Positions 3 to 52,343 of a stretch of DNA of 64,000 bases are shown one piece after another (the first letter of the stretch is position 1; each line of letters starts with the position of its first letter). The notes below the pieces were generated by a model, which was given only the letters and a program-made list of their open reading frames with translations, searched no databases and had not been told where the DNA came from. Location: NCBI GenBank assembly GCA_020351995.1, contig CP070674.1:3226007-3290006 (forward strand), read 5' to 3'. The position numbers were made by a program, and so were the translations under genes. The DNA comes from Candidatus Zixiibacteriota bacterium. GTDB taxonomy: Bacteria > Zixibacteria > MSB-5A5 > GN15 > FEB-12.

Positions 3-1025
3 GAGGACATTCACCCGCAGATCTCCCTTATTATTACCGCTTATAACGAAGAACGACGAATCAGGGAAAAAATAGAGAACACCCTGTCGATGGACTATCC
101 GAAGGACAGGCTCGAAATCATTGTTGTTTCCGACGCATCCACCGATCGGACCGACGAGATCGTACGCTCCTTCGCCGACCGGGGAATTCAGCTGCTTCGA
201 ATCCCGGAGCGTCACGGTAAGCATTACGGTCAGGGGCGAGGAATCCGGATGGCAAAAAGTGACATCGTGGTGCTTACCGACGCCACGACGTTCCTCGAGA
301 AGGACGGCGTATCAAAAATCATCCGCAATTTCGCCGATCCTGCTATCGGCTGTGTATCGTCCGAAGACAGGATGCGAACCGCTGATTCCAATGCCTCGGG
401 CGAGGGCATGTACGTTACCTATGAGATGACACTTCGTAGCCTCGAAAGCAAAGTGGGTTCGCTGGTGGGTGTCTCGGGCAGTTTCTACGCGGTGAGGAAA
501 CACCTCTGCGAACACTGGATTGACAATATGTCGAGCGATTTCTACATGCCGAGTGTATCGAAAATCAACGGTTACCGGACGGTGCTGGAGAGCGAGGCCC
601 TGGGTTATTATGACGTCGTCAGGGATCCGGAGAAGGAATTCATCCGTAAGGTAAGAACGGTGGTGCACGGGTACGAGGTTCTGTTCCGCTTTGCCCGCGT
701 GTTGAATCCGTTCAGGTACGGGTTCTACGCGGTTCAGATGTTCAGCCATAAGCTTTGCCGATGGCTGGTACCGCTGTTTATGGTTGTGGCTTTCGTCAGT
801 AATATCTTCCTGCTGAATCACGGGGTAATATATCAGATATCCTTTGTAGCGCAGGCGCTGGTGTACCTGTTGGCGATACTCGCCTTTGCCGCTCACCGAT
901 TGCAGGATATAGTCATGTTTAAGGTACCCTTCTTTTTTGTCATGGTAAATCTCTCGATTCTTGTCGCCTGGTATAAGTACCTGACCGGCCAGGAGTATGT
1001 GGTATGGGACGCAACGAAAAGATAA
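3..1025 (+). CDS. Glycosyltransferase family 2 (5'-truncated by window edge)
   Basis: Frame is open from base 3 (EDIHPQISLIITAYNEERRIREKIENTL...). GT-A motifs SDASTD, LTDA, SSDF; C-terminal TM helices. Confidence 0.9.
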   Translation, partial: EDIHPQISLIITAYNEERRIREKIENTLSMDYPKDRLEIIVVSDASTDRTDEIVRSFADRGIQLLRIPERHGKHYGQGRGIRMAKSDIVVLTDATTFLEKDGVSKIIRNFADPAIGCVSSEDRMRTADSNASGEGMYVTYEMTLRSLESKVGSLVGVSGSFYAVRKHLCEHWIDNMSSDFYMPSVSKINGYRTVLESEALGYYDVVRDPEKEFIRKVRTVVHGYEVLFRFARVLNPFRYGFYAVQMFSHKLCRWLVPLFMVVAFVSNIFLLNHGVIYQISFVAQALVYLLAILAFAAHRLQDIVMFKVPFFFVMVNLSILVAWYKYLTGQEYVVWDATKR

Positions 1026-2161
1026 GGGTCTGCCATGTCATCTCAGGTGACCTGTGGGCCGGGGCCGAGGTTCAGGCGTACACCATGCTCAAGGGCCTGG
1101 CCAGGATTCCTGATATAGACATCATGGCCATCGTTCTCAACGAAGGTAAGCTAACGTCCTTGCTACGAGCAGCCGGAGTCAGTGTTCTTGTCATCGACGA
1201 ATCGAAGAACGGTTTCTTCGCGATACTTCGCAAAGCCAGGGAACTTATGCGTGGCCGGGATATTGACATCATCCACAGCCATCGGCGCAAGGAAAACGTT
1301 CTCACCGGCCTGCTTAAGCGGAGCCGACACGCGGAACATGCCGTTCAGACAGTTCACGGAGCTTCCGAACCCTTCAAAGGCATAAAGTGGCTGAAAGAGA
1401 AGATTTACGCAATTATGAACAGGTACGTGACGAATCGTTACTTTGACCACATCATGCCGGTTTCAGACGACCTTAAATCTATTATCAGCGATACGCTGCG
1501 CCGTGGCCGACTGACGACCATTCATAACTCGATTGATTTGAAAACCGTAGTACTCACTAAGAGCGCATCCGAATTTCGACAGGAGTTGGGTCTCCCCGTT
1601 GATAAACCGGTCATCGGTTCGGCGGGAAGAATGGTTCCGGTCAAGGGGTTCGACGTTTTTGTGCGAGCGGCCGCCAAGGTGATGGCAAAGAGACCCGAGG
1701 TTTCTTACGTGCTGGCTGGTGAGGGCCCTCTGTCGGAAAGCTTGAAAAATCTTGCCGCCGATCTGGGCATAACCGACCGGGTCCGGTTTCCCGGGTTCCG
1801 GGAGGATATAACCGATTTGCTCAATTCGCTTGACATTTTCGTCGTTTCGTCGCATCACGAAGGTATCCCGACAGTGCTTCTGGAAGCGATGGCTCTCGGC
1901 AAATCGGTAGTGTGCACCGGCGTAGGCGGGATAAATGAGATTATAGAAGACGGGCTTTCGGGAATCCTGGTTGAGCCCGGCGATGCCGCGGCGATCGCCG
2001 AGGCCTGTGAGCGTCTCCTCGATAATGCGGATCTCAGACTTAACCTGGGACAGGCCGCGCGCAGGACAGTTGAGGACAGATTTTCATCGGAAAGCCAGGC
2101 CGGGAGCATAGCCGACATCTACAGGGGGCTGGTGCGTCCAGCTCACGAGCAGAAAGTGTGA
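1004..2161 (+). CDS. Glycosyltransferase family 4 (GT-B)
   Basis: GGAE-like N-terminal motif (WAGAE), GRMVPVKG, EGIPTVLLEAMA (EX7E). Overlaps upstream stop by 22 nt. Confidence 0.9.
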   Translation: MGRNEKIRVCHVISGDLWAGAEVQAYTMLKGLARIPDIDIMAIVLNEGKLTSLLRAAGVSVLVIDESKNGFFAILRKARELMRGRDIDIIHSHRRKENVLTGLLKRSRHAEHAVQTVHGASEPFKGIKWLKEKIYAIMNRYVTNRYFDHIMPVSDDLKSIISDTLRRGRLTTIHNSIDLKTVVLTKSASEFRQELGLPVDKPVIGSAGRMVPVKGFDVFVRAAAKVMAKRPEVSYVLAGEGPLSESLKNLAADLGITDRVRFPGFREDITDLLNSLDIFVVSSHHEGIPTVLLEAMALGKSVVCTGVGGINEIIEDGLSGILVEPGDAAAIAEACERLLDNADLRLNLGQAARRTVEDRFSSESQAGSIADIYRGLVRPAHEQKV

Positions 2162-2162
2162 T

Positions 2163-3146
2163 ATGGATAATAAGCAACTTAACCACCGCATAAGCTTCAT
2201 TATTCCCGTGTTAAATGGCGAGAAGTTCATCGCCGATTGCATCGACCACATACTGGCTGAAATGGGTGACGATGACGAACTCATCGTGGTTGACAACGGC
2301 TCGACTGACGGAACCATGGACATCGTTCGTCGATACAGCCGTGTCACCGTCATGCAGTTTCCTCATTCCACAATCGCGTACCTGAGAAACCGGGGGACCG
2401 AAGTTGGCTCGCGTGAACTGCTGGCGTTTATCGATTCCGACTGCATTTTGTGCGAAGGCTGGCGGAGAGCGGTGGCATCGGTTCTGGAGGATGACACCAT
2501 CCACGCCACTGGTTCAAAGTATGATATTCCTGAGCCCGCGCACTGGATCGAAAGAGCCTGGTATTCAAAAAGAACCCGGGAGATGGCGCCGGCCAAATAT
2601 ATCAACTCCGGTAACCTGGTGGTTCGAAGGGAAGTTTTCGAGGCTATTGGTGGATTTGATGAAAGTCTTGTTACGGACGAGGACTATGACATTGGTCGAC
2701 GATTAAACCAGAGCGGGTTCAGAATCATCGAAGCACCGCAGATCCGTGTGATACACCTGGGTAATCCGAAGAGCCTGCGGAACTTTTATCGAAAAGAAAA
2801 GTGGCACGCCACCAGTTCGCTCAACGCTCTGACCCGCGGAGATATCGACAAACCGACCATGATGACGATGGTATTCTTGCTCTGCTGTCTTATCGCATTG
2901 CTGATACTGCCATCGATCATCGCCGGCAAATTAAGTCCCGTGCGGCTGGTAGCTTTACTTCTATTCGTCCCCCTGGTAACGGCCTTTTACCGGGCGGTTC
3001 AATACCGGGCGTTCGTTCATATTCCGGCATTTATAGTTCTTTACTTTTTGTTTTATATTGCCAGAGGGGGCACATTCCTCCAGTATATGTATAGACTGAT
3101 CATGGGGCGCATTTACCTCGGCAAGTCCAGGGAACAAAGCCGTTGA
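2163..3146 (+). CDS. Glycosyltransferase family 2 with C-terminal TM helices
   Basis: SFIIPVLNGE, VDNGSTDGT, FIDSD, GGFDE...EDYD motifs. Confidence 0.9.
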   Translation: MDNKQLNHRISFIIPVLNGEKFIADCIDHILAEMGDDDELIVVDNGSTDGTMDIVRRYSRVTVMQFPHSTIAYLRNRGTEVGSRELLAFIDSDCILCEGWRRAVASVLEDDTIHATGSKYDIPEPAHWIERAWYSKRTREMAPAKYINSGNLVVRREVFEAIGGFDESLVTDEDYDIGRRLNQSGFRIIEAPQIRVIHLGNPKSLRNFYRKEKWHATSSLNALTRGDIDKPTMMTMVFLLCCLIALLILPSIIAGKLSPVRLVALLLFVPLVTAFYRAVQYRAFVHIPAFIVLYFLFYIARGGTFLQYMYRLIMGRIYLGKSREQSR

Positions 3147-6139: not shown

Positions 6140-7102
6140 TTATTCCAGGCGTATGTTATCAATGAACAGGGTGTGCTGGCGGATCAGGTTAACCGTAAAT
6201 ATGTGAATCGGCCCAACCGAACCCAGATCCAATTCGCGGCCGGCGGGAGCCACTCTAACATCGGAAATCGGTATCGATATTTGACTGTCTCCCGGCAACA
6301 CCGCCATAATCTTATTGAATCGGTCAGTATATTCGTCATTGTGATGGGAGTCTTCAATCCTGATTCGGATAATGATGGCCGTATCCGCGGGCGAGTAAAG
6401 GTCAAACCGCAGCGCGGTGTATTCCCTCCAGTCCGGGTATGGTTCCACAATGGCCATTCCCGGAAAGTCGCCTGATCGGAGAGTCAGTTTTCCAACCTTA
6501 CCCCGGCCACTCAACCAGACGTCGGGAGAACGTACAATCTCAACCCTGGCATCGGTGGTGGACAGAAATCTTCTACTCCAGCGAGAGTCGAAATCACATA
6601 TAACAGGAAAGGCCCGGCTGCGATGAACATAAGTTTCTGACAGCAGGGCCAACGGCACGAATGAAATCACCAGCACCGCCAGAGCAAGCGCCAGAACACC
6701 CATTCGTTGGCGGAACGAGATACTTACTTTCATCCCCCGGTCGAAATACATGAAGACGCCCAAGAATGAGATTGCCCCCGCTATGTCTCGGATAAGGTCG
6801 CCGAAATCGGCGTCGCGTGGGCCGATTAGCTGAGCGAACTCAGTAACCGCCCCCAAGAAGATGCAGGCGCCGAGGGCTAAGAGATAATGATGCCACCTGT
6901 GTTTAAGACGACGGTCGAGTGTTCGGAGAGATATGCCCAGTAGAAGCAGGGAGATTACACCGAAGAACGGGGTGTGGCCCGTGTTCTGGATTTCTCTCCA
7001 GAGGAACGTATTGAGTGGTAACTGGTAATCCAGCACCGCAATAGTCATGGCCAATACGGCAATCACCATCATGCCGACAACAGCACTTCCGCGAGTAGTC
7101 AT
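6140..7102 (-). CDS. VanZ-like membrane protein fused to a periplasmic carbohydrate-binding-like domain
   Basis: N-terminal TMs with GHxxxF and TEFAQ...RDADFGDLIRD (VanZ-like); soluble C-terminus with PDWREYTALRFDLYSP. Confidence 0.65.
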   Translation of the reverse strand: MTTRGSAVVGMMVIAVLAMTIAVLDYQLPLNTFLWREIQNTGHTPFFGVISLLLLGISLRTLDRRLKHRWHHYLLALGACIFLGAVTEFAQLIGPRDADFGDLIRDIAGAISFLGVFMYFDRGMKVSISFRQRMGVLALALAVLVISFVPLALLSETYVHRSRAFPVICDFDSRWSRRFLSTTDARVEIVRSPDVWLSGRGKVGKLTLRSGDFPGMAIVEPYPDWREYTALRFDLYSPADTAIIIRIRIEDSHHNDEYTDRFNKIMAVLPGDSQISIPISDVRVAPAGRELDLGSVGPIHIFTVNLIRQHTLFIDNIRLE

Positions 7103-7546
7103 GATATCGATTCTTCTATATGAAGGTGAGCCATCGTCAACACAGTGAGCCTAAAGCTAACACAAGCCGACCGGCTTTTCAACTGCTTTCTTGTTCGGGG
7201 ATCCATCATCTGCGGCCTGCACCACCTGTGCCCGGGGCTGTGAATGGGCCGGATGGCCCCACCGCCGACAGGGGATGAACAGCACCTGGCGGCCCATTCC
7301 CAAAGTGCCAGCGCCGGCATCAAGCGGCGTAATTTACACCATAGCAACAAGATAGCGGCCAGCTCGAAGTGTGTTATGGGCCGGGGGCAGACGACCAACA
7401 AATATAATTGAAAAATGGAGCTTTTCCGGCTTTATTTTGTTGCAAAGAAAAGAGGAAGGAGCCGGGAACAACTGATCCAGGTAGGAATGTTTGGATAATA
7501 TTCGCCTTTACAGCAGAAACTAAGATCTTCGTAAGGAATCGCAGAC

Positions 7547-9364
7547 TTGAACATACTGGGGATATCGGCTTTTTATCATGACAGCGCAGCCTGTCTTGTC
7601 CGCGATGGCAAGATTGTCTCGGCCGCTCAGGAGGAGCGGTTCACCCGTAAGAAACATGACTTCAGCTTTCCCACTAACGCCGTACGTTTCTGCCTGGGGG
7701 ACAGTAACCTCGACGGCAGCGACCTCGATCTGGTGGCTTTTTACGACAAGCCGTTTCTAAAATTCGAACGTATTCTCGAGACCTACCTGGCCTTCGCACC
7801 GCTTGGCATAAAGTCTTTCATCAAAGCAGTTCCTCTGTGGATAAAGGAGAAGCTCTGGATGAAAGATCTTATTGAGCGGCAGCTACAATTCAAAGGCAAG
7901 ATCATTTTTCCAGAGCACCATCAGTCGCATGCCGCTTCGGCATTTCTCCCTTCCCCATTTCAGCAGGCCGCCTTTTTAACGATAGACGGGGTCGGCGAGT
8001 GGGCTACGGCCAGTTACGGCGTCGGCCGCGACAACAGAATTGAGATTCAGGCCGAAATCCATTTTCCTAATTCACTGGGCTTGCTTTATTCGGCATTCAC
8101 GTATTACACGGGTTTCAAGGTAAACTCCGGTGAATACAAAGTCATGGGGCTTGCACCTTACGGGGAGCCGAAGTACAAGGACTTGATTCTGTCGGAATTG
8201 ATGGATCTCAAGGAAGACGGCTCTTTCAGGATGAACATGAATTATTTCGATTACTGTGCGGGACTGACTATGACGAACGGGAAGTTCGACAAGTTGTTTG
8301 GCGGTCCGCCGCGCAAACCCGAGTCCCGGCTAACCCAGCGCGATATGGACCTGGCCCGGTCAGTCCAGGATGTAACGGAAGAAGTTATGCTGCGGATGGT
8401 CCGTCATGTTCATAAGCAAACGGGCCAGAAGAATCTTTGTCTCGCGGGCGGTGTTGCCCTGAACTGCGTGGGAAACGGTCGAATCCTCCGGGAAGGGCCG
8501 TTCGAGAATATCTGGATACAGCCCGCCGCCGGAGATGCCGGCGGGGCCATAGGCGCGGCTCTGATCGGCTGGCACGAGTACCTGGGCAACGCGCGGCAGG
8601 CTGATAATCATGATGATTCTCAATACGGGTCATTCCTGGGGCCTGTCTTCCAGCCGGAACAGATAAGAAGCTATCTTGACGAGAATGAAATCGCTTACAC
8701 TGAAATCCAGCCGGACAAAATCCCGGAGCGCATCGCCGATCTGATTGCCCAGGAAAAAGTAATTGGCTGGTTCCAGGGGCGGATGGAGTTCGGGCCGCGA
8801 GCTCTCGGCGCACGGTCGATCATCGGTGATGCCCGCTCGCCGAAAATGCAGGAGATAATGAATCTCAAGATTAAGTTCCGGGAGAGCTTCAGGCCGTTCG
8901 CACCCTCGGTGATCGAGGAGCGAAGCCGTGACTTCTTTGATATAAAGACCGCCAGTCCCTATATGCTGCTGGTAGCCGAGGTGCAGAAACAGCATCAGCA
9001 AGAGATGACACCTGAGCAGCAGCGTCTATTCGGACTTGATAAATTAAAGGTGGTCCGCTCATCGATACCGGCCGTGACTCATGTTGACTATTCGGCCCGG
9101 TTGCAGACGGTATCGCGCCGGCACAATCCCCTGTACCATAAAGTCATTGACACCTTCGACCAAAAATACGGGTGCCCGGTGATAATCAACACTTCCTTTA
9201 ATGTGCGCGGAGAGCCAATCGTGTGTTCGCCTCGCGATGCCTATCTGTGCTTCATGAGAACCAACATGGATTATCTTATCATGGGGCCTTGCCTCCTGGA
9301 CAAAAGCCAGCAGAAGCCCCTTGAAGAAGATACTGACTGGCAGAAAGAGTTCGAACTCGACTGA
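7547..9364 (+). CDS. Carbamoyltransferase, NodU/CmcH family
   Basis: YHDSAA, EERFTRKKH, HHQSH, DGVGE, EYKVMGLAPYG, GGVALN, EFGPRALG, RPFAP, NTSFN motifs. TTG start. Confidence 0.93.
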   Translation: MNILGISAFYHDSAACLVRDGKIVSAAQEERFTRKKHDFSFPTNAVRFCLGDSNLDGSDLDLVAFYDKPFLKFERILETYLAFAPLGIKSFIKAVPLWIKEKLWMKDLIERQLQFKGKIIFPEHHQSHAASAFLPSPFQQAAFLTIDGVGEWATASYGVGRDNRIEIQAEIHFPNSLGLLYSAFTYYTGFKVNSGEYKVMGLAPYGEPKYKDLILSELMDLKEDGSFRMNMNYFDYCAGLTMTNGKFDKLFGGPPRKPESRLTQRDMDLARSVQDVTEEVMLRMVRHVHKQTGQKNLCLAGGVALNCVGNGRILREGPFENIWIQPAAGDAGGAIGAALIGWHEYLGNARQADNHDDSQYGSFLGPVFQPEQIRSYLDENEIAYTEIQPDKIPERIADLIAQEKVIGWFQGRMEFGPRALGARSIIGDARSPKMQEIMNLKIKFRESFRPFAPSVIEERSRDFFDIKTASPYMLLVAEVQKQHQQEMTPEQQRLFGLDKLKVVRSSIPAVTHVDYSARLQTVSRRHNPLYHKVIDTFDQKYGCPVIINTSFNVRGEPIVCSPRDAYLCFMRTNMDYLIMGPCLLDKSQQKPLEEDTDWQKEFELD

Positions 9365-9374
9365 GGAAATTCTT

Positions 9375-9791
9375 GTGATACTCGAGCAGATTAAGAGCAT
9401 AAAGAGCGGGAAAAGAGAACTTCGCCATTTCGGCCTGATAATGGCGGTTGTCCTGGGAATCATCGGCGGCTATCTATGGTGGCGGGGAGGCGAATACTAT
9501 GCCCACCTGTTAGTCGCGGCGGCTTTCTTCGGCCTTGCCGGGTGGGTAATCCCGGTCTTGCTGATGCCTTTTCATAAGATCTGGATGACCATTTCTATAA
9601 TATTGGGATGGTTTATGACGAGGCTGATTCTGGTGTGTCTTTTCTATCTGGTCGTTACACCGACAGGACTGTTGGCGAAGTTATTCGGCAAGAAGTTCCT
9701 GCAGTGGCAATTCGACAGTGAGGCGAAAAGTTACTGGGTGTTGAAGAGGGAATCATCGCCTGACAAGAAGGTTTACGAGCGACAGTTTTGA
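9375..9791 (+). CDS. SxtJ-family membrane protein
   Basis: ELRHFG...W...LGWFMTR...F...TPTG...YW...YERQF pattern, directly after a carbamoyltransferase. GTG start with GAGG RBS chosen. Confidence 0.7.
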   Translation: MILEQIKSIKSGKRELRHFGLIMAVVLGIIGGYLWWRGGEYYAHLLVAAAFFGLAGWVIPVLLMPFHKIWMTISIILGWFMTRLILVCLFYLVVTPTGLLAKLFGKKFLQWQFDSEAKSYWVLKRESSPDKKVYERQF

Positions 9792-9853
9792 TCTTGCTAC
9801 TACTATAAATGTTCGCGGGGGCTATCAAATAATTATTAAAATAGGGTGCTAAA

Positions 9854-10852
9854 TTGAAATTCAATAAAGAGAGCTTGAAAATCGATGCCCGCCTGGTAAG
9901 CGAGCAACTGGCCGAGACAATTCTCAAACAGGTCAGGGTGACGCTCAAGAAGGCCGGGGCCGTGGTCGGTATATCCGGTGGGCTGGACTCCTCGGTTGTT
10001 CTGGCTTTGTGCGCCAAAGCCCTTGGCCCCGATCGAGTGGTGGGCGTCATGATGCCGGAGACCGACTCATCTCCGGACAGCCAGCAACTGGCCCAAGCAC
10101 TGGCCGACAGATTCGGGGTTCAAACGGTGGTCGAGAATATCACGCCCGCTCTCGAGGGTATGGGTTGTTACCGTCGGCGTGACGAGGCCATCAGGGAGGT
10201 GTTTCCGGAGTATGACCATACTTACAAGAACAAGATCACCATTCCGACCAATATCCTCGAGAAGGAAACTTTCAACTTCTTTACGCTGACTATCGAGAAC
10301 GCCGCCGGGGAGACAAAATCCAAGCGCATGCCTCCTTCGGCGTATTTAAAAGTGGTGGCAGCCTCGAATCTCAAACAGAGATTGCGAATGACAACCCTTT
10401 ACTATCACGCCGAAGAACGCAACTACGCCGTGGCCGGCACGGGTAACAAGGACGAGCACTGCCAGGGTTTCTTCGTCAAGTACGGCGACGGCGGAGCCGA
10501 CCTGAAACCGATCGCTCATCTATTCAAGGTGCAGATCTATCAACTGGCCGAGGAGTTGGGCGTACCTGACGAGATTATAAAGCGCGTGCCGACTACCGAT
10601 ACCTACAGTGCCGGATCCACCCAGGAAGAGTTCTTCTTTGGCCTGGATTTTTACCGCATGGACATGCTGTGGTACGCCATGGAAAATGGGGTGCCGACGG
10701 ATGAGGCCGCAAAGGTAATGAATCTTTCCGAGCAACAGGCTCGGCGCGCCTACGCGAATATTCAAAGAAAGATCGACGGCACCGAGTACCTGCGGCTTCC
10801 CCCTCTGGAGGTGCAAAGTAAACAAAGCGGCAAATCAGGGAAACTTATGTGA
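9854..10852 (+). CDS. NAD synthetase (NadE)-like N-type ATP pyrophosphatase, paralog 1
   Basis: GISGGLDSSV PP-loop, GTGNKDE, FFVKYGDGG, HLFKVQIYQLA, PTTDTYS; about 50-60 aa internal insertion. Confidence 0.85.
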   Translation: MKFNKESLKIDARLVSEQLAETILKQVRVTLKKAGAVVGISGGLDSSVVLALCAKALGPDRVVGVMMPETDSSPDSQQLAQALADRFGVQTVVENITPALEGMGCYRRRDEAIREVFPEYDHTYKNKITIPTNILEKETFNFFTLTIENAAGETKSKRMPPSAYLKVVAASNLKQRLRMTTLYYHAEERNYAVAGTGNKDEHCQGFFVKYGDGGADLKPIAHLFKVQIYQLAEELGVPDEIIKRVPTTDTYSAGSTQEEFFFGLDFYRMDMLWYAMENGVPTDEAAKVMNLSEQQARRAYANIQRKIDGTEYLRLPPLEVQSKQSGKSGKLM

Positions 10853-10912
10853 CCATACATTGTTTGAGCATGAAAAGAACAGCAATTTGACAGAAGAGGT
10901 TGATCTCAAATT

Positions 10913-11170
10913 ATGACACCAAACGACAACATCAAAAAGAAACTCAAAGACTTCATCAGAGAAGTATTCCTGGTGGGTGATGAAGATCAGGAACTCAGTG
11001 ACGGCGACTCATTCATGCAAACCGGTATAATCGACTCTACCGGTGTATTAGAACTGGCGTCTTTTATAGAACGGGAGTTCGCTTTCACGATTGAGGATGA
11101 TGAGATGACACCGCAGAATCTTGACTCGATCAGTAATCTGGTGGCGTTTATCTCCAAAAAGATCGGCTGA
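10913..11170 (+). CDS. Acyl/peptidyl carrier protein
   Basis: 85 aa, acidic, GIIDSTGVLEL phosphopantetheine Ser motif. Confidence 0.92.
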   Translation: MTPNDNIKKKLKDFIREVFLVGDEDQELSDGDSFMQTGIIDSTGVLELASFIEREFAFTIEDDEMTPQNLDSISNLVAFISKKIG

Positions 11171-11212
11171 GTAAAGCCGACCGTACCCTAACCGTATCTC
11201 GTTGATGAGCGT

Positions 11213-12772
11213 ATGAAAGTCTTTGACCTGTTATCCGAGAGTGCCGAGCGGTTTCCGGATAAACCGGCGGTGACCCACAATAATGAGCGTCTCAGTTTCC
11301 GGCAGCTCTACGAGCGATCGGCGGCTCTGGCGAATCGCTTAAGAGAACTGGGGCTGCCCGAAGGTTCTCGAATCGCCCTGCTTTTCGAAAATTCACTCGA
11401 GTACGCCACGGCATTTTTTGCCATTTTCGCGGCCGATTACGTAGCGGTGCCGATGGATACCTCCCTTGACGAAGACAGCCTGAGGTACGTGCTTACTGAC
11501 TGCGACGCCAGGGTATTGCTGGCCGGGTTCCAATTCCGCCGGACACTTCCGAAGGTCCTGGCCGGTGACACACCGGTTGAACGTGTGTTCACAGACAGGA
11601 AATTCGGCCTGGGCAGAGACGATATTCCGCAGGAAATTATCGGAGATATAACTTCACCGGAAAGATACCTCCCGGTATCACGGACCCGGTCGGGTTCTGA
11701 CGGCGAGCGTGAGCTGGCGGCGATCTTTTACACCTCGGGTTCCACCGGAAAGCCCAAGGGCGTCATGCTCTCACACCTCAATCTTGTATCCAATACGCTG
11801 GCCACCATAGAGTACCTCAAGCTGACCGACGATGATAGCGTGATTGTCATTCTTCCCTTCTACTATATTTACGGCAATTCTTTGCTGCTAACCCATATCG
11901 CGTGCGGCGGAAGGCTGGTGGTCGACAACCGCTTCATGTACCCGGAGGTGGTCCTGGATACCATGGAGGCCGAAGGTGTCACAGGCTTTTCCGGAGTGCC
12001 CTCGAACTTCATGATTCTGCTGGGAAACTCGACCTTCGCCAAACGAAAACTGGAGTCGTTAAGGTATTTCACGCAGGCGGGAGGCGCGATGGCCCCGGAA
12101 ATAATACGCAGGCTCATGGACGCTTTCCCGTCGAAGGAAATCTACATTATGTATGGGCAGACCGAGGCCGCCCCTCGAGTGACCTGGCTGCCTCCCCAGA
12201 TGCTCACCAGGAAACTCGGCTCGATTGGAATTCCCGTGCCGGGGGTCAAGGTAAGCGTAGCGGACGAAAACGGCAACGAATTGCCACCGGGTGAGGTGGG
12301 TGAAATTGTTGTCGACGGTCCCAACGTGATGATGGGCTACTGGAACCAGGCTGATGAAGAGCGCGAGGTGCTCAAGAACGGGCGGCTGTTCACGGGCGAC
12401 CTGGCGAAGAAAGACGAGGACGGGTACTTATACGTGGTCGGACGGAAGAAAGAAATTATCAAAACAGGCGGAAACCGTGTCAGCGTCAAGGAGATCGAAG
12501 AATGTCTGATGGAGCATGAGCAGATCCTGGAGACGGCTGTATTCGGGGTGGACGATCCCGTTCTCGGCGAAGCCATCACGTCGGTAGTAGTCAGGAAAGC
12601 GGGTTCGACCGCGACAGAGAAGGAGATTCTCGACTTTTGCCGGAATCGTCTGGCCAGTCACAAAGTTCCCAAGTATGTTGACTTTGTCCCGTCATTGCCC
12701 AAACAACTCTCCGGTAAGGTTGACAAGGTCCGGTTGAAATCCGAAAAAACAAAAACGCTTGGCATAAAATGA
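11213..12772 (+). CDS. AMP-forming acyl/aminoacyl ligase (ANL adenylation family)
   Basis: YTSGSTGKPKG, YGQTE, FTGDL, GRKKEIIKTGG, SGKVDK core motifs. Confidence 0.92.
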   Translation: MKVFDLLSESAERFPDKPAVTHNNERLSFRQLYERSAALANRLRELGLPEGSRIALLFENSLEYATAFFAIFAADYVAVPMDTSLDEDSLRYVLTDCDARVLLAGFQFRRTLPKVLAGDTPVERVFTDRKFGLGRDDIPQEIIGDITSPERYLPVSRTRSGSDGERELAAIFYTSGSTGKPKGVMLSHLNLVSNTLATIEYLKLTDDDSVIVILPFYYIYGNSLLLTHIACGGRLVVDNRFMYPEVVLDTMEAEGVTGFSGVPSNFMILLGNSTFAKRKLESLRYFTQAGGAMAPEIIRRLMDAFPSKEIYIMYGQTEAAPRVTWLPPQMLTRKLGSIGIPVPGVKVSVADENGNELPPGEVGEIVVDGPNVMMGYWNQADEEREVLKNGRLFTGDLAKKDEDGYLYVVGRKKEIIKTGGNRVSVKEIEECLMEHEQILETAVFGVDDPVLGEAITSVVVRKAGSTATEKEILDFCRNRLASHKVPKYVDFVPSLPKQLSGKVDKVRLKSEKTKTLGIK

Positions 12773-13773
12773 AAGGAATTATCATGACATCAGTTAAAGA
12801 CGCACTCAAGATAAACCCGGAGCGCGAAGCCAACATCGTCCAGGAATTCATGTCCTCACAGATGAAGGGGGCCCCCAAGCGGGACGGGATAATCGTTGGC
12901 GTAAGCGGAGGCATCGACTCGGCCGTGGTTGCTTCACTGGCGGTCGCCGCCGTGGGTAAGGATAAAGTTTACGGACTGATTCTCCCGGAAAAAGAATCCA
13001 ACCCGGTTTCGGCCCAATATGCGCAAAAGGTAATCGACAAGCTGGGGATACGGCATACCACGGTAGAGTTGACGGGTGCCGTGGGAAGTTTCGCGGCATA
13101 TCAGACCCGTGATGAGATCATCAAATCCATATTTCCCGAGTACAACGAGAGCTACAAGTTCAACATATACCTGCCGCAGAATCTTTTGGATGTCGACCGC
13201 TACAATTTCTACACGCTGCGTCTTGACGACGGCAACGGGAATGTCAGGGAAAAGCGGCTGACCAAGAGCCAGTTTCTGGCCATAACGGCGGCCGCCAACG
13301 TCAAGATTCGCTCTCGTATGATAGCCCTGTATTTCTGGGGTGAGCAGATGAATTACCTGGTTGCCGGGACCACCAACAAGAGCGAATTCCTGCTGGGTGA
13401 TTTCTGTAAGTTCGGCGATGGTGGTACCGATGTTGAAGCCATCTCGCATCTGTACAAGACACAGGTCTATCAGCTTGGAGAGTATTTCGGGATACCGGAA
13501 GAAATCATCAAGCGGACGCCGAGCCCGGATACCTTCAGCCTGGCGGTATCGGACAAGGATTTCTATTTCTGCCTGCCGTTTGACCAGCTCGATCCCCTGC
13601 TGTACGCCTGGGAATACAAGGTCGACATCGACCTGGTCGCCAAAGAGCTCGGTCTGACACCGGAGCAGGTTCAGCGGGCTTACCGCGATTTTGAATCCAA
13701 GCACAGCACCACCGAGCATATTCGCCAGCTACCCTACGCCATCGTGCGTGACTGGCGGTCGAACGTATCTTAA
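12769..13773 (+). CDS. NAD synthetase (NadE)-like N-type ATP pyrophosphatase, paralog 2
   Basis: GVSGGIDSAV, GTTNKSE, KFGDGG, HLYKTQVYQL, PSPDTFS; same insertion as paralog 1. Confidence 0.85.
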   Translation: MKGIIMTSVKDALKINPEREANIVQEFMSSQMKGAPKRDGIIVGVSGGIDSAVVASLAVAAVGKDKVYGLILPEKESNPVSAQYAQKVIDKLGIRHTTVELTGAVGSFAAYQTRDEIIKSIFPEYNESYKFNIYLPQNLLDVDRYNFYTLRLDDGNGNVREKRLTKSQFLAITAAANVKIRSRMIALYFWGEQMNYLVAGTTNKSEFLLGDFCKFGDGGTDVEAISHLYKTQVYQLGEYFGIPEEIIKRTPSPDTFSLAVSDKDFYFCLPFDQLDPLLYAWEYKVDIDLVAKELGLTPEQVQRAYRDFESKHSTTEHIRQLPYAIVRDWRSNVS

Positions 13774-13904
13774 TCCGCGCTTTTGCCGGGGCTCGCAGCA
13801 GATCGAAACAAGCAGCACCGTCAGCGGCGACCTCTATATTGCTTGACATAATCCGACCCAGCGGTCTTATTGGGGAAAACTTCTTCTCAGCGAAGGGATA
13901 AACC

Positions 13905-15206
13905 ATGAATATCTGTGTGGTAGGCACAGGCTACGTGGGCCTGGTGGCCGGAACGTGCATGTCTGATTTCGGTATGAACGTCATCTGTGTTGACAGCGAC
14001 GAATCGAAGATAAACATGCTTAACAACGGCCAGATACCCATATACGAAATAGGCCTCAGCGAGCTTGTGCGCCGTAATGTCAAACAGGGGCGACTTAAAT
14101 TCTCAACCGATCTGAAAGAAGCCGTGACCCGTTCGCTGGTAGTATTTATCGGGGTCGGGACGCCGGAAAATGATGACGGAAGCTCCAATCTCACCCAGGT
14201 TCGACAGGTCGTAGCCGAAATCGCGGGCTATATTACCGATTACAAGGTGATTGTGATTAAAAGTACGGTCCCGGTAGGAACGTCGCGCGAACTGCGTGAG
14301 CTTGTCAAGCAGCACAACAAGGCCGGGGTCGAATTCGATATAGTGTCCAACCCGGAATTTCTGCGTGAGGGAGCCGCGGTGGGTGATTTTCTCCGTCCGG
14401 ACAGGGTGATAATCGGCGCCGATTCCGAACGAGCTTTGTCTATCATCAAGGAGATTTACCGGCCACTTTACCTGCTTGAAACACCCATTGTCAGTACCAC
14501 CAACGAGACGGCCGAGATGATAAAGTATGCCTCGAACACGATGCTGGCACTGAAAATTTCTTTCATCAACGAAATCGCCAATATCTGCGACAAAGTTGGC
14601 GCCGATGTTTACAAAGTCGCCACAGCGGTGGGAATGGATAAAAGGATCGGTCCCAAGTTCCTGCACCCCGGTCCGGGATTCGGGGGTTCGTGCTTTCCCA
14701 AGGACATTCGGGCGCTGGTTAGCACCGCGGAATCGGTTGGGTATGATTTCCAGATCGGAAAAGCCCTGCTGAGCGTGAACGAGCACCAGAAGGAGCTTGT
14801 GGTGAAGAAGAGTCGTGATTTCCTGGGGGGACTCGACGGCAAGACCATTTGCCTTCTGGGCTTGTCGTTTAAGCCGCTGACCGATGACGTTCGTGAGGCG
14901 CCGGCTATCCATATTGCCCGACGGCTCAAGGATGAGGGAGCCGTTGTCCAGGCCTACGATCCGGCGGCTCTGGAGCAGGCACGAGCCCAGTTACCGGATA
15001 TCAATTACCACGATGATTATCTATCGGCCGCGAAAGGGGCTGACCTCGTCATTATCGCTACCGAATGGCATGAGTTCCGAGACCTGGATTTTGACCAGCT
15101 CAAATCACTGATGAACTCGCCCGCTATATATGACACCAGGAACATATACGACCCCGCCGAGGTGAGAAAGAAGGGGTTCAAATATATCTGCACCGGTAGA
15201 CATTGA
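13905..15206 (+). CDS. ugd: UDP-glucose/GDP-mannose 6-dehydrogenase
   Basis: GTGYVG, IKSTVPVGT, SNPEFLREG, GFGGSCFPKD, LGLSFKP.TDD.RE. Confidence 0.93.
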   Translation: MNICVVGTGYVGLVAGTCMSDFGMNVICVDSDESKINMLNNGQIPIYEIGLSELVRRNVKQGRLKFSTDLKEAVTRSLVVFIGVGTPENDDGSSNLTQVRQVVAEIAGYITDYKVIVIKSTVPVGTSRELRELVKQHNKAGVEFDIVSNPEFLREGAAVGDFLRPDRVIIGADSERALSIIKEIYRPLYLLETPIVSTTNETAEMIKYASNTMLALKISFINEIANICDKVGADVYKVATAVGMDKRIGPKFLHPGPGFGGSCFPKDIRALVSTAESVGYDFQIGKALLSVNEHQKELVVKKSRDFLGGLDGKTICLLGLSFKPLTDDVREAPAIHIARRLKDEGAVVQAYDPAALEQARAQLPDINYHDDYLSAAKGADLVIIATEWHEFRDLDFDQLKSLMNSPAIYDTRNIYDPAEVRKKGFKYICTGRH

Positions 15207-15242: not shown

Positions 15243-15276
15243 AAAAAAGTCGGGTACTTTCGTACCCGACTTTTTT
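15243..15276. terminator. Bidirectional intrinsic terminator
   Basis: AAAAAAGTCGGGTAC-TTTC-GTACCCGACTTTTTT between convergent genes. Confidence 0.9.
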
Positions 15277-51419: not shown

Positions 51420-52343
51420 ATGCGCAGACGAATCGATTGCCTGGGTATGGGCATCATTCCCTATGACCTGCTGTTCAATGTTAGTCGTTATCCCGACGCA
51501 GGTATGAAAATCAATGCGTCGGGGTTCTTTATGCAGGGCGGGGGCCCCGTTCCCAATGTGGCTATCGGGCTGGCTCGAATGGGCTTCAAAACCGCCCTGA
51601 TCGCGGTGGTCGGTGACGACCCTTTCGGAAAGCTGTCAATCGATGAAATCAGGAGAGAAGGTGTCGACCATCGCTTCATAATCGTCAAAAAGCAACCTTC
51701 GGCCCTGGCGGGTGGATGGATCGAGGATGTAAGCGGCCGACGAACACTGGTGCTGTCTCGAAAGATATTCGTTGAACCGGCTGATATAAAGACGTCCACC
51801 TACCCGGTGCCACGAATTCTTCATCTGGACGGACGGGACATGCCGGCGACTCTGAAGCTGGCTCGCTGGGCAAAACGAAGCGGCGTCATCGTGTCATTTG
51901 ACATAGGCTCGATGCGTAACGATATATCGGCGGTTTTTCCTTACGTAGATCACATTGTCGTCGCCGATGGATACGCGTTCCCGTTTACGAAAACCAGAAC
52001 AGCGCGGGGGGCTATTCGAAAACTGGCGAAACTTTGCCCCGGGACCATTGTGGTTACCGAGGGAATTAAAGGCTCGACGGGGTGTGAACCACATTCGGAC
52101 AAAACGGATTTCGTTTTTCACCCGGCTTACAAGGTGAGAAACATCGATACTACCGGAGCCGGTGATTGTTACCATACCGGTTACCTGTACGGATTACTTA
52201 AAGGGTTCGAACTGGTCGAGAGGATGAAATTGGGATCGGCCGCGGCGGCGCTCAAGTGCACCCGTCCCGGTGCGCGAAGCGGGATTCCCACCGAGGCTCA
52301 ACTTCTGAAATTTGTCAAGAGCCGACGGCCAATATACAGGTAG
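51420..52343 (+). CDS. PfkB-family carbohydrate kinase
   Basis: GGG..NVA.GLARMG, VGDDPFG, DTTGAGD..H.G; ATG 51420. Confidence 0.92.
   Translation: MRRRIDCLGMGIIPYDLLFNVSRYPDAGMKINASGFFMQGGGPVPNVAIGLARMGFKTALIAVVGDDPFGKLSIDEIRREGVDHRFIIVKKQPSALAGGWIEDVSGRRTLVLSRKIFVEPADIKTSTYPVPRILHLDGRDMPATLKLARWAKRSGVIVSFDIGSMRNDISAVFPYVDHIVVADGYAFPFTKTRTARGAIRKLAKLCPGTIVVTEGIKGSTGCEPHSDKTDFVFHPAYKVRNIDTTGAGDCYHTGYLYGLLKGFELVERMKLGSAAAALKCTRPGARSGIPTEAQLLKFVKSRRPIYR

Follow-up and report, generated by a model that had tools for sequence, protein, structure and literature searches.

The cassette and its genes

We describe a stretch of 64,000 nucleotides from a Candidatus Zixiibacteriota bacterium (GenBank assembly GCA_020351995.1, contig CP070674.1, positions 3,226,007 to 3,290,006 of the forward strand), hereafter called the window; positions are counted from its first letter unless contig positions are indicated. 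Positions 9854 to 13773 of the window hold four genes, which encode a NadE-like protein (here NadA), an acyl carrier protein (ACP), an adenylate-forming (ANL) ligase and a second NadE-like protein (NadB). The preliminary description of this DNA had claimed this gene order, and all four open reading frames (ORFs) are confirmed where it had placed them. Together, the four proteins make up a single accessory biosynthetic cassette, which lies outside NAD metabolism. The genes are as follows.

9854-10852, + strand: NadA, 332 aa, TTG start; A-type NadE-like PP-loop enzyme of NF002048/PRK00876 and invariant hallmark of the cassette
10913-11170, + strand: dedicated ACP, 85 aa, with an IDST motif (PF00550, E = 4e-5)
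11213-12772, + strand: ANL ligase, 519 aa (PF00501, E = 3e-91, and PF13193), with the "type I" motif LPFYYIYGNSLLLTH
12769-13773, + strand: NadB, 334 aa; B-type NadE-like PP-loop enzyme, overlapping the stop of the ligase gene by 4 nt

The serine of the IDST motif is presumed to be the phosphopantetheine site of the ACP.

NadE-like proteins

Both NadA and NadB match the domain PF02540 (NAD_synthase) with E-values of 1e-53 and 3e-53, respectively, and score 453 and 368 bits against the family NF002048 (PRK00876), which is named "NAD(+) synthase" and has a curated cut-off of 313 bits. The two proteins are about 41% identical, and neither has a glutaminase domain. As noted in the preliminary description, both keep the SGGxDS PP-loop (SGGLDS in NadA and SGGIDS in NadB). 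That description also stressed a departure from the canonical segments NxxARxRM and PSAxL; the variants it cited are present (NLKQRLRM and NVKIRSRM for the former, PTTDTY and PSPDTF for the latter), but the departure is minor, with the functional N, R, R and T/S all kept. In an alignment with Bacillus subtilis NadE, using a reference sequence identical to PDB 1ee1_A, the equivalents of S46, G47, G48, D50, S51, N133, R137, R139, T157, E162, K170, D173, D177, K186 and T208 are kept, NadB having S rather than T at the last position, and the catalytic and ATP/Mg residues are conserved across the subfamily. NadA and NadB thus retain the whole NadE machinery for adenylation of a carboxylate followed by displacement of AMP by ammonia.

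The most conspicuous difference from NadE is a shared insertion, which the preliminary description had put at about 50-60 residues. It is real and amounts to about 54 extra residues; the two sequences given for it, RDEAIREVFPEY...FNFFTLTIE and RDEIIKSIFPEY...YNFYTLRLD, are both present. In an alignment with Pyrococcus horikoshii NadE (2e18), NadA residues 102-169 replace residues 89-102 of that protein. The insert follows the third strand, occurs in both paralogues and is kept through 24 diverse members of the subfamily with the pattern GCYxxRDEAIRxVFPxY ... FNxFxL ... KRLP. An AlphaFold2 model of NadA (pLDDT 89.5, pTM 0.88) shows it, confidently modelled, as one helix (105-116) and three strands. 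The model as a whole has the Rossmann-like fold of NadE, with a TM-score of 0.83 against 2e18 when normalised to the target. A Foldseek search with this model returned NadE-family structures only, the best being 2e18, 1xng and 3fiu (a Francisella nicotinamide mononucleotide (NMN) synthetase) with target-normalised TM-scores of 0.80-0.86.

Several positions outside the catalytic set are also altered. In the alignment to B. subtilis NadE, the C-terminal part of which is weak, Y32 is replaced by Q, F129 by V or T and K258 by L or I in the two proteins, and F167 is replaced by D in NadB only. We take Y32, F129, F167, H257 and K258 to be contacts to nicotinic acid adenine dinucleotide (NaAD) across the dimer interface in the B. 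subtilis structures, and the replacements are suggestive only.

The preliminary description had argued that these proteins are not housekeeping NAD synthetases, and this view is borne out by a canonical NadE elsewhere in the genome and by the patchy distribution of the PRK00876 genes. The canonical gene lies about 6 kb past the window. Its NadE domain is full-length, scores 257 bits against PF02540 and follows directly on a CN-hydrolase domain; a run of N breaks the upstream part of the gene. A canonical NadE is found in 40 of 41 relatives, with or without a PRK00876 gene; PRK00876 genes are found in only 24 of the 41 and, phylum-wide, in 88 of 151 genomes. Among 14 control genomes, that of Methanosarcina acetivorans is the sole one with a PRK00876 member above the cut-off.

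Note that the model of the canonical glutamine-dependent NadE matches two sites of the contig that are 215 kb apart (contig positions 3296134-3297213 and 3511253-3512197). One match covers model positions 176-543 and lies beside a run of about 105 N, and the other covers positions 4-311. The cause of this split could be a gap in the assembly, masking of a stretch or rearrangement of the gene. In genomes of the same genus, the canonical NadE appears as a synthetase-sized open frame only, of about 270-310 aa.

It is still conceivable that NadA and/or NadB are true NAD (or NMN) synthetases, namely extra ammonia-dependent isozymes that lie in this locus by chance. Their scores exceed the cut-off of a family named for NAD(+) synthase, every catalytic residue is retained, and the closest structures are NadE and the Francisella NMN synthetase. 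However, the own genome and 40 of 41 relatives have a canonical NadE, the distribution of the PRK00876 genes is patchy, a 54-residue insert is added, the positions that we take to contact the far half of NaAD are altered, and the genes are tightly linked, and sometimes fused, to genes for ACP, ligase and phosphopantetheinyl transferase (PPTase), as described below. We therefore consider this explanation extremely improbable.

Composition of the cassette in other genomes

The preliminary description had also grouped the NadE-like proteins with the ACP and the ligase as one functional unit, and this is supported by synteny, by wide linkage and by fusion proteins. Of the two outcomes that it had named as refutations, neither was found: the genome has another nadE gene, and the homologues are strongly linked to an ACP and a ligase. 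NadA, ACP and ligase genes occur together in 13 of 16 relatives' loci and in most of 82 further loci; the ACP gene is syntenic with that of NadA in 11-13 of the 16 relatives, and the order of the three genes varies among these loci. A chance pattern is excluded because the arrangement recurs in many genomes. A scan limited to a single genome for each species yielded at least 580 relatives, from which 80 loci were kept for analysis. The kept loci belong to Zixibacteria, Ignavibacteriota, Calditrichota, Chloroflexota, Acidobacteriota, Cyanobacteriota, Bacteroidota, Verrucomicrobiota and Pseudomonadota, and the cassette is thus found in at least nine phyla overall.

Profile searches and clustering of the proteins of about 100 loci identified NadE-like proteins in 88 loci, the ligase in 72, the ACP in 65 and an AsnB-like protein in 62. 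No other family is widely shared, the next commonest being a Wzz-like family in 17 loci. The usual AsnB-like member is a glutamine amidotransferase of 660 aa. The four-gene picture of the preliminary description overlooked this protein, which is the usual fourth member of the cassette and whose slot is occupied by NadB in the window.

Some proteins from metagenomes combine members of the cassette in a single chain: the ligase with a NadE-like protein, a NadE-like protein with an ACPS phosphopantetheinyl transferase, and a NadE-like protein with AMP-binding_C and PP-binding domains. Some of these fusions could be artefacts of gene calling, yet even then they show adjacency. The surroundings of the cassette are often those of a polysaccharide locus. 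In a genome of 6.1 Mb, two tandem NadE-like genes, an ACP gene and a ligase gene lie between Wzz/Poly_export genes and the EpsI/EpsH exosortase genes, and many other copies are flanked by Wzz, glycosyltransferase (GT) and acetyltransferase genes.

A single genome can also contain more than one copy. One zixibacterial genome (G119) has three PRK00876 genes and three AsnB-like genes on contigs C117, C50 and C42/C40, two pairs of which are adjacent or less than 2 kb apart; this genome carries several copies of the cassette.

Replacement of the AsnB-like member by NadB

NadB is 56% identical to copies in the PVC (Planctomycetes, Verrucomicrobia and Chlamydiae) bacteria, Spirochaetales and Thermodesulfobacteriota, but only 41% identical to NadA. 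With B. subtilis NadE and the canonical NadE of the source genome as the root of the tree, the NF002048 subfamily forms a single group. Within it, an A clade with 100% SH-aLRT support contains NadA, the nadE gene of Sinorhizobium meliloti pSymB and all copies that have an AsnB-like partner, and NadB falls outside this clade. NadB is thus a separate, old branch of the subfamily. The possibility that it is a recent duplicate of NadA was considered and is ruled out by the two identity values and by its position in the tree.

Each two-copy locus contains one A-clade copy and one B-type copy, and contains no AsnB-like gene. A genome-wide search of the source genome for an orthologue of the AsnB-like protein found none, the best matches being 22-30% identical. 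Among the genomes with both types, only 1 of 13 has such an orthologue (G147, where it lies on another contig of a 390-contig assembly), whereas 37 of 41 genomes with the A type only have one, at times 25-30 kb away or on another contig. Fisher's exact test for this complementarity gives p = 6e-8, a naive value that ignores shared ancestry; the state with both types spans three families. A B-type NadB serves as the fourth enzyme in the source genome and in about a dozen other Zixibacteria. Because the presence of the two proteins is complementary and NadB occupies the slot of the AsnB-like gene, we conclude that NadB takes the place of the AsnB-like partner and that both fill the same step.

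A further variant occurs in an exopolysaccharide (EPS) locus of the PVC group (L036), in which the order is ACP, ligase, WbuX-like PP-loop amidotransferase and B-type NadE-like gene. The WbuX-like N-acetyl sugar amidotransferase (positions 8970-9965 of that locus) scores 166 bits against TIGR03573, which is below the cut-off, and represents a third PP-loop scaffold in the slot of the AsnB-like protein or NadB. The preliminary description had raised a heterodimer as a possibility; an obligate heterodimer of the A and B types is unlikely, given that the A type occurs without the B type in most genomes and that the locus just described has a B type without an A type within 10 kb.

The replacement of one family by the other amounts to a natural swap experiment and is the new contribution of the window. 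It implies that the two proteins carry out equivalent steps, and narrows the chemistry to activation of a carboxylate (or carbonyl) followed by transfer of nitrogen.

Genomic context

The cassette lies in a block of genes that run in the same direction. The other features of the block and its surroundings are listed below.

90-3146, + strand: ORFs of glycosyltransferases, in the order membrane GT2, GT1, GT2
7547-9364, + strand: NodU/CmcH-type O-carbamoyltransferase (PF02543/PF16861), upstream of the cassette
9321-9791, + strand: SxtJ-like small protein (PF19588, E = 1e-5), paired with the carbamoyltransferase
13905-15206, + strand: Ugd, UDP-glucose 6-dehydrogenase, with three UDPG_MGDP_dh domains (TIGR03026, 482 bits); last gene of the co-directional block
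15243-15276, no strand assigned: palindromic hairpin with a perfect 15-bp stem, preceded by A6 and followed by T6, between the convergent Ugd and PorV-like genes

The setting in a glycan locus, which the preliminary description had recognised, holds: four glycosyltransferases (GT1, membrane GT2, GT1 and GT2 in this order, with the leading GT1 immediately upstream of the window) are present together with the carbamoyltransferase and Ugd, all co-directional. Against the GT1 profile, the ORF at 1004-2161 scores 467 and the one that precedes the window 265, and the GT2 assignments were made by reading the protein sequences. The G+C content is uniform over the region. The only strong terminator-like hairpin follows the block, 3' of Ugd, and probably ends transcription from both sides, that of the block on the + strand and that of the PorV-like gene converging on it; a search of 7000-15200 gave no similar terminator on the + strand.

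The cassette had been placed between a carbamoyltransferase and Ugd, and both do flank it, but the small SxtJ-like ORF between the carbamoyltransferase and NadA had been overlooked. When read from its first listed start codon, this ORF overlaps the 3' end of the carbamoyltransferase gene by 44 nt (9321-9364). The pair recurs in one other locus (L023). Of 17 loci from relatives, only 2 have the carbamoyltransferase beside the cassette, and it is not a conserved member. Near the start of the same contig are further homologues of two of these proteins, separated by about 5 kb: one of the carbamoyltransferase (34% identity; contig positions 45304-46956) and a small one of the ACP (32%; 51981-52220). 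This region may be another glycan locus that contains a carrier protein.

The neighbourhood suggests a function other than the one we favour. Ugd lies directly 3' of NadB and, often with an epimerase-like gene of the short-chain dehydrogenase/reductase type, is also near the cassette in loci L020, L023, L029, L033 and L036. As the preliminary description had proposed in the first place, NadA and/or NadB might adenylate and amidate the C6 carboxylate of UDP-glucuronic or UDP-galacturonic acid, or of uronates in the polymer, with the ACP and ligase belonging to a separate acylation. AsnB-like enzymes such as WbpS are implicated in the formation of O-antigen uronamides, and the replacement of an AsnB-like enzyme by NadB would agree with such a role. 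However, of 82 loci outside the close relatives, only 3 have Ugd within 10 kb, whereas the ACP and ligase are rarely missing; the four-gene operon of S. meliloti stands alone, with no sugar genes beside it; and the fusions of NadE-like proteins are with the ligase, PPTase and ACP, none being with sugar-nucleotide enzymes. The link to Ugd that the preliminary description had drawn is thus local to some Zixibacteria, and we judge amidation of uronic acids to be quite unlikely.

Ligase and carrier protein

The ligase scores 390 bits against TIGR03098, below the cut-off of 592, and is about equally close to the adenylation domains of non-ribosomal peptide synthetases (NRPS) and to fatty-acyl, feruloyl, malonyl and oxalyl-CoA ligases. 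The ligases of the window and of loci L020 to L118 fall into two types by the motif that follows the SGSTG box, LPFYYIYGNS and LPL(S/A)FDYGLYQ. The window ligase and those of most Zixibacteria carry LPFYYIYGNSLLLTH, which has no Asp, and the LPFYYIYGNS type also occurs in PVC bacteria; the other type is found in most cassettes, including those of S. meliloti, Chloroflexota, Ignavibacteriota and Acidobacteriota. The two motif types may mark different loaded acids. Because the window ligase lacks the motif with Asp (SFDYG), an amino-acid substrate is less likely for it than for the ligases elsewhere. Note that the split between the motif types does not track the swap between the AsnB-like protein and NadB. 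The nearest named families of the ACP are those of ornithine lipid and cispentacin, both with scores below their cut-offs.

These relationships leave room for a product that is a free or lipid-linked small molecule, such as an amide-bearing fatty acyl group, an amino-lipid or a signal, in which case the siting in glycan loci would reflect shared regulation or a shared envelope function. The near-equal closeness of the ligase to fatty-acyl, malonyl and oxalyl-CoA ligases, the below-cut-off likeness of the ACP to the ornithine lipid and cispentacin families, the lack of a conserved glycan-directed transferase in the cassette and the position of the S. meliloti operon away from EPS genes all agree with this explanation. 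On the other hand, most copies, from several phyla, lie within polysaccharide loci beside genes for Wzz, glycosyltransferases, acetyltransferases or exosortases, and the S. meliloti ligase SMb20650 does not act on oleate as a CoA ligase, according to PMC7232532. On balance, a free or lipid-linked product seems rather unlikely.

Proposed function

The reading that we favour, and regard as moderately probable, is that the cassette makes an amide-bearing acyl group on its carrier protein for transfer to a glycan. In the first step, the ligase would attach a carboxylic acid to the ACP through its phosphopantetheine arm. NadA would act next, followed by NadB (the AsnB-like protein elsewhere), each converting a free carboxylate of the tethered group to an amide at the expense of ATP. 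The nitrogen source of both enzymes in the window variant should be free ammonia, since neither has a glutaminase domain. Finally, a transferase specific to each locus would move the amide-bearing acyl group to the polysaccharide that the glycosyltransferases encoded nearby assemble. The intact chemistry, the accessory status, the coupling to the carrier protein and the swap of NadB for the AsnB-like protein are observations, and the substrate, the sequence of steps and the acceptor are inferred.

Several points weigh against this proposal. All of its functional steps derive from the chemistry of the families and from gene linkage, and the altered residues Y32, K258 and F129 are placed in the NaAD pocket by our own assumption about the B. 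subtilis structures. An acid tethered by one carboxylate would need two more to serve two amidating enzymes; one of the enzymes may do otherwise, through formation of an amidine or nitrile or through coupling of an amine. A conserved fifth gene for a transferase or thioesterase that would off-load the ACP was sought over the approximately 100 loci, and none was found. Two relatives' loci (L021 and L022) have NadA without an ACP or ligase within 10 kb, a PRK00876 member occurs in the archaeon M. acetivorans, and the S. meliloti operon lies outside any glycan locus, with no glycan genes beside it.

A broader generalisation is possible, and we hold it tentatively. The PRK00876 "NAD synthases" may be the first enzymes of the NadE family to act on a substrate that is tethered to, or delivered by, a carrier, with the insert and a remodelled dimer groove receiving the phosphopantetheine arm. 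The AsnB-like and B-type PP-loop scaffolds, which are unrelated, would then be interchangeable in the second step, and the surface polymers of hundreds of bacterial species as far apart as Zixibacteria and S. meliloti would bear a previously undescribed acyl decoration rich in amides, possibly with a diamide, an amidine or a nitrile.

Whatever the product, the cassette is common, occurring in at least 580 species-level genomes and in 88 of 151 Zixibacteria. The entries that databases hold under the name "NAD(+) synthase" (NF002048) number in the thousands and are probably mis-annotated, with the result that metabolic reconstructions of uncultured phyla are distorted. Full-text searches of the literature found no paper on a cassette of NadE-like protein, ACP and ligase, and the paper on the NADS family (PMC3376133) contains no mention of these paralogues. 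The orthologous copy in S. meliloti provides a tractable model organism for direct testing.

Comparison with known systems

Ammonia-dependent NadE (EC 6.3.1.5; 1KQP/1EE1, 2E18 and 1XNG) and the Francisella enzyme (3FIU) share with the window proteins the fold, the PP-loop, the residues for Mg, ATP and the tetrahedral intermediate, and the lack of a glutaminase domain. The window proteins differ in the insert of about 54 residues, in the altered positions equivalent to Y32, F129 and K258, in being accessory rather than universal, and in belonging to a carrier-protein cassette.

For amidation on a carrier, a precedent is found in polyketide synthesis. OxyD, which provides the malonamyl starter of oxytetracycline, is an AsnB homologue that amidates the free carboxylate of a thioester-bound diacid. 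It belongs to a type II polyketide synthase (PKS) cluster, whereas the window has no PKS. To our knowledge, no enzyme of the NadE family amidates carrier-bound carboxylates.

The gene set associated with exosortase A (XrtA/PEP-CTERM), which was defined in silico, consists of a ligase (TIGR03098), an ACP, a decarboxylase dependent on pyridoxal phosphate (TIGR03099) and an amidotransferase (TIGR03108). It resembles the cassette in combining a private ACP, its own ANL ligase and an amidotransferase of the AsnB family in EPS loci. TIGR03098 and TIGR03108 are among the best matches of the window ligase and of the AsnB-like partners, respectively, and in one locus (L037) the cassette lies beside EpsH and EpsI. 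However, the AsnB-like partners score only 439-454 bits against a cut-off of 817, and the XrtA set has no NadE-like member. In the source genome, there is no match above the cut-off to a TIGR03099-type decarboxylase, and the only gene of the exosortase family is about 80 kb away. We considered membership of the cassette in the XrtA-associated module and rejected it on account of the ligase and AsnB-like scores below the cut-offs and the missing decarboxylase; the cassette is a relative of that module.

The closest known system is the pSymB operon of S. meliloti, in which the order is asnB-like gene, ACP gene (SMb20651), ligase gene (SMb20650, annotated as a "class I adenylate-forming enzyme") and nadE, and which is the same cassette by descent. 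Identities between the window and pSymB are 48% for NadA, 51% for the ACP and 38% for the ligase, and the pSymB AsnB-like protein is 48% identical to a zixibacterial AsnB-like representative. The operon was studied by Ramos-Vega et al. (2009, Microbiology 155:257), whose work is cited in PMC7232532 and PMC9386255. According to PMC7232532, smb20650 and the ACP gene smb20651 are transcribed together, and expression of smb20650 in Escherichia coli leads to acylated SMb20651. PMC7232532 also states that SMb20650 does not make oleoyl-CoA and cannot stand in for FadD on oleate, and a 2017 paper (PMC5686131) describes the function of SMb20651 as still to be investigated further. We found no discussion in the literature of the roles of the asnB or nadE members in S. 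meliloti.

The window matches this operon in having an A-clade NadE-like gene that adjoins a private ACP gene and an ANL ligase gene. It differs in its setting, the S. meliloti operon lying outside any glycan locus, and in the genes themselves. The ligase motif is LPLAFDYGLYQ in S. meliloti and LPFYYIYGNS in the window; and S. meliloti has the AsnB-like gene and a single NadE-like gene, whereas the window has a second, B-type NadE-like gene and lacks the 660-aa AsnB-like fourth gene. This kind of cassette is thus already known from S. meliloti, and the displacement of its AsnB-like protein by NadB is new: the window contains a cassette of the S. meliloti type in which the AsnB-like member has been replaced.

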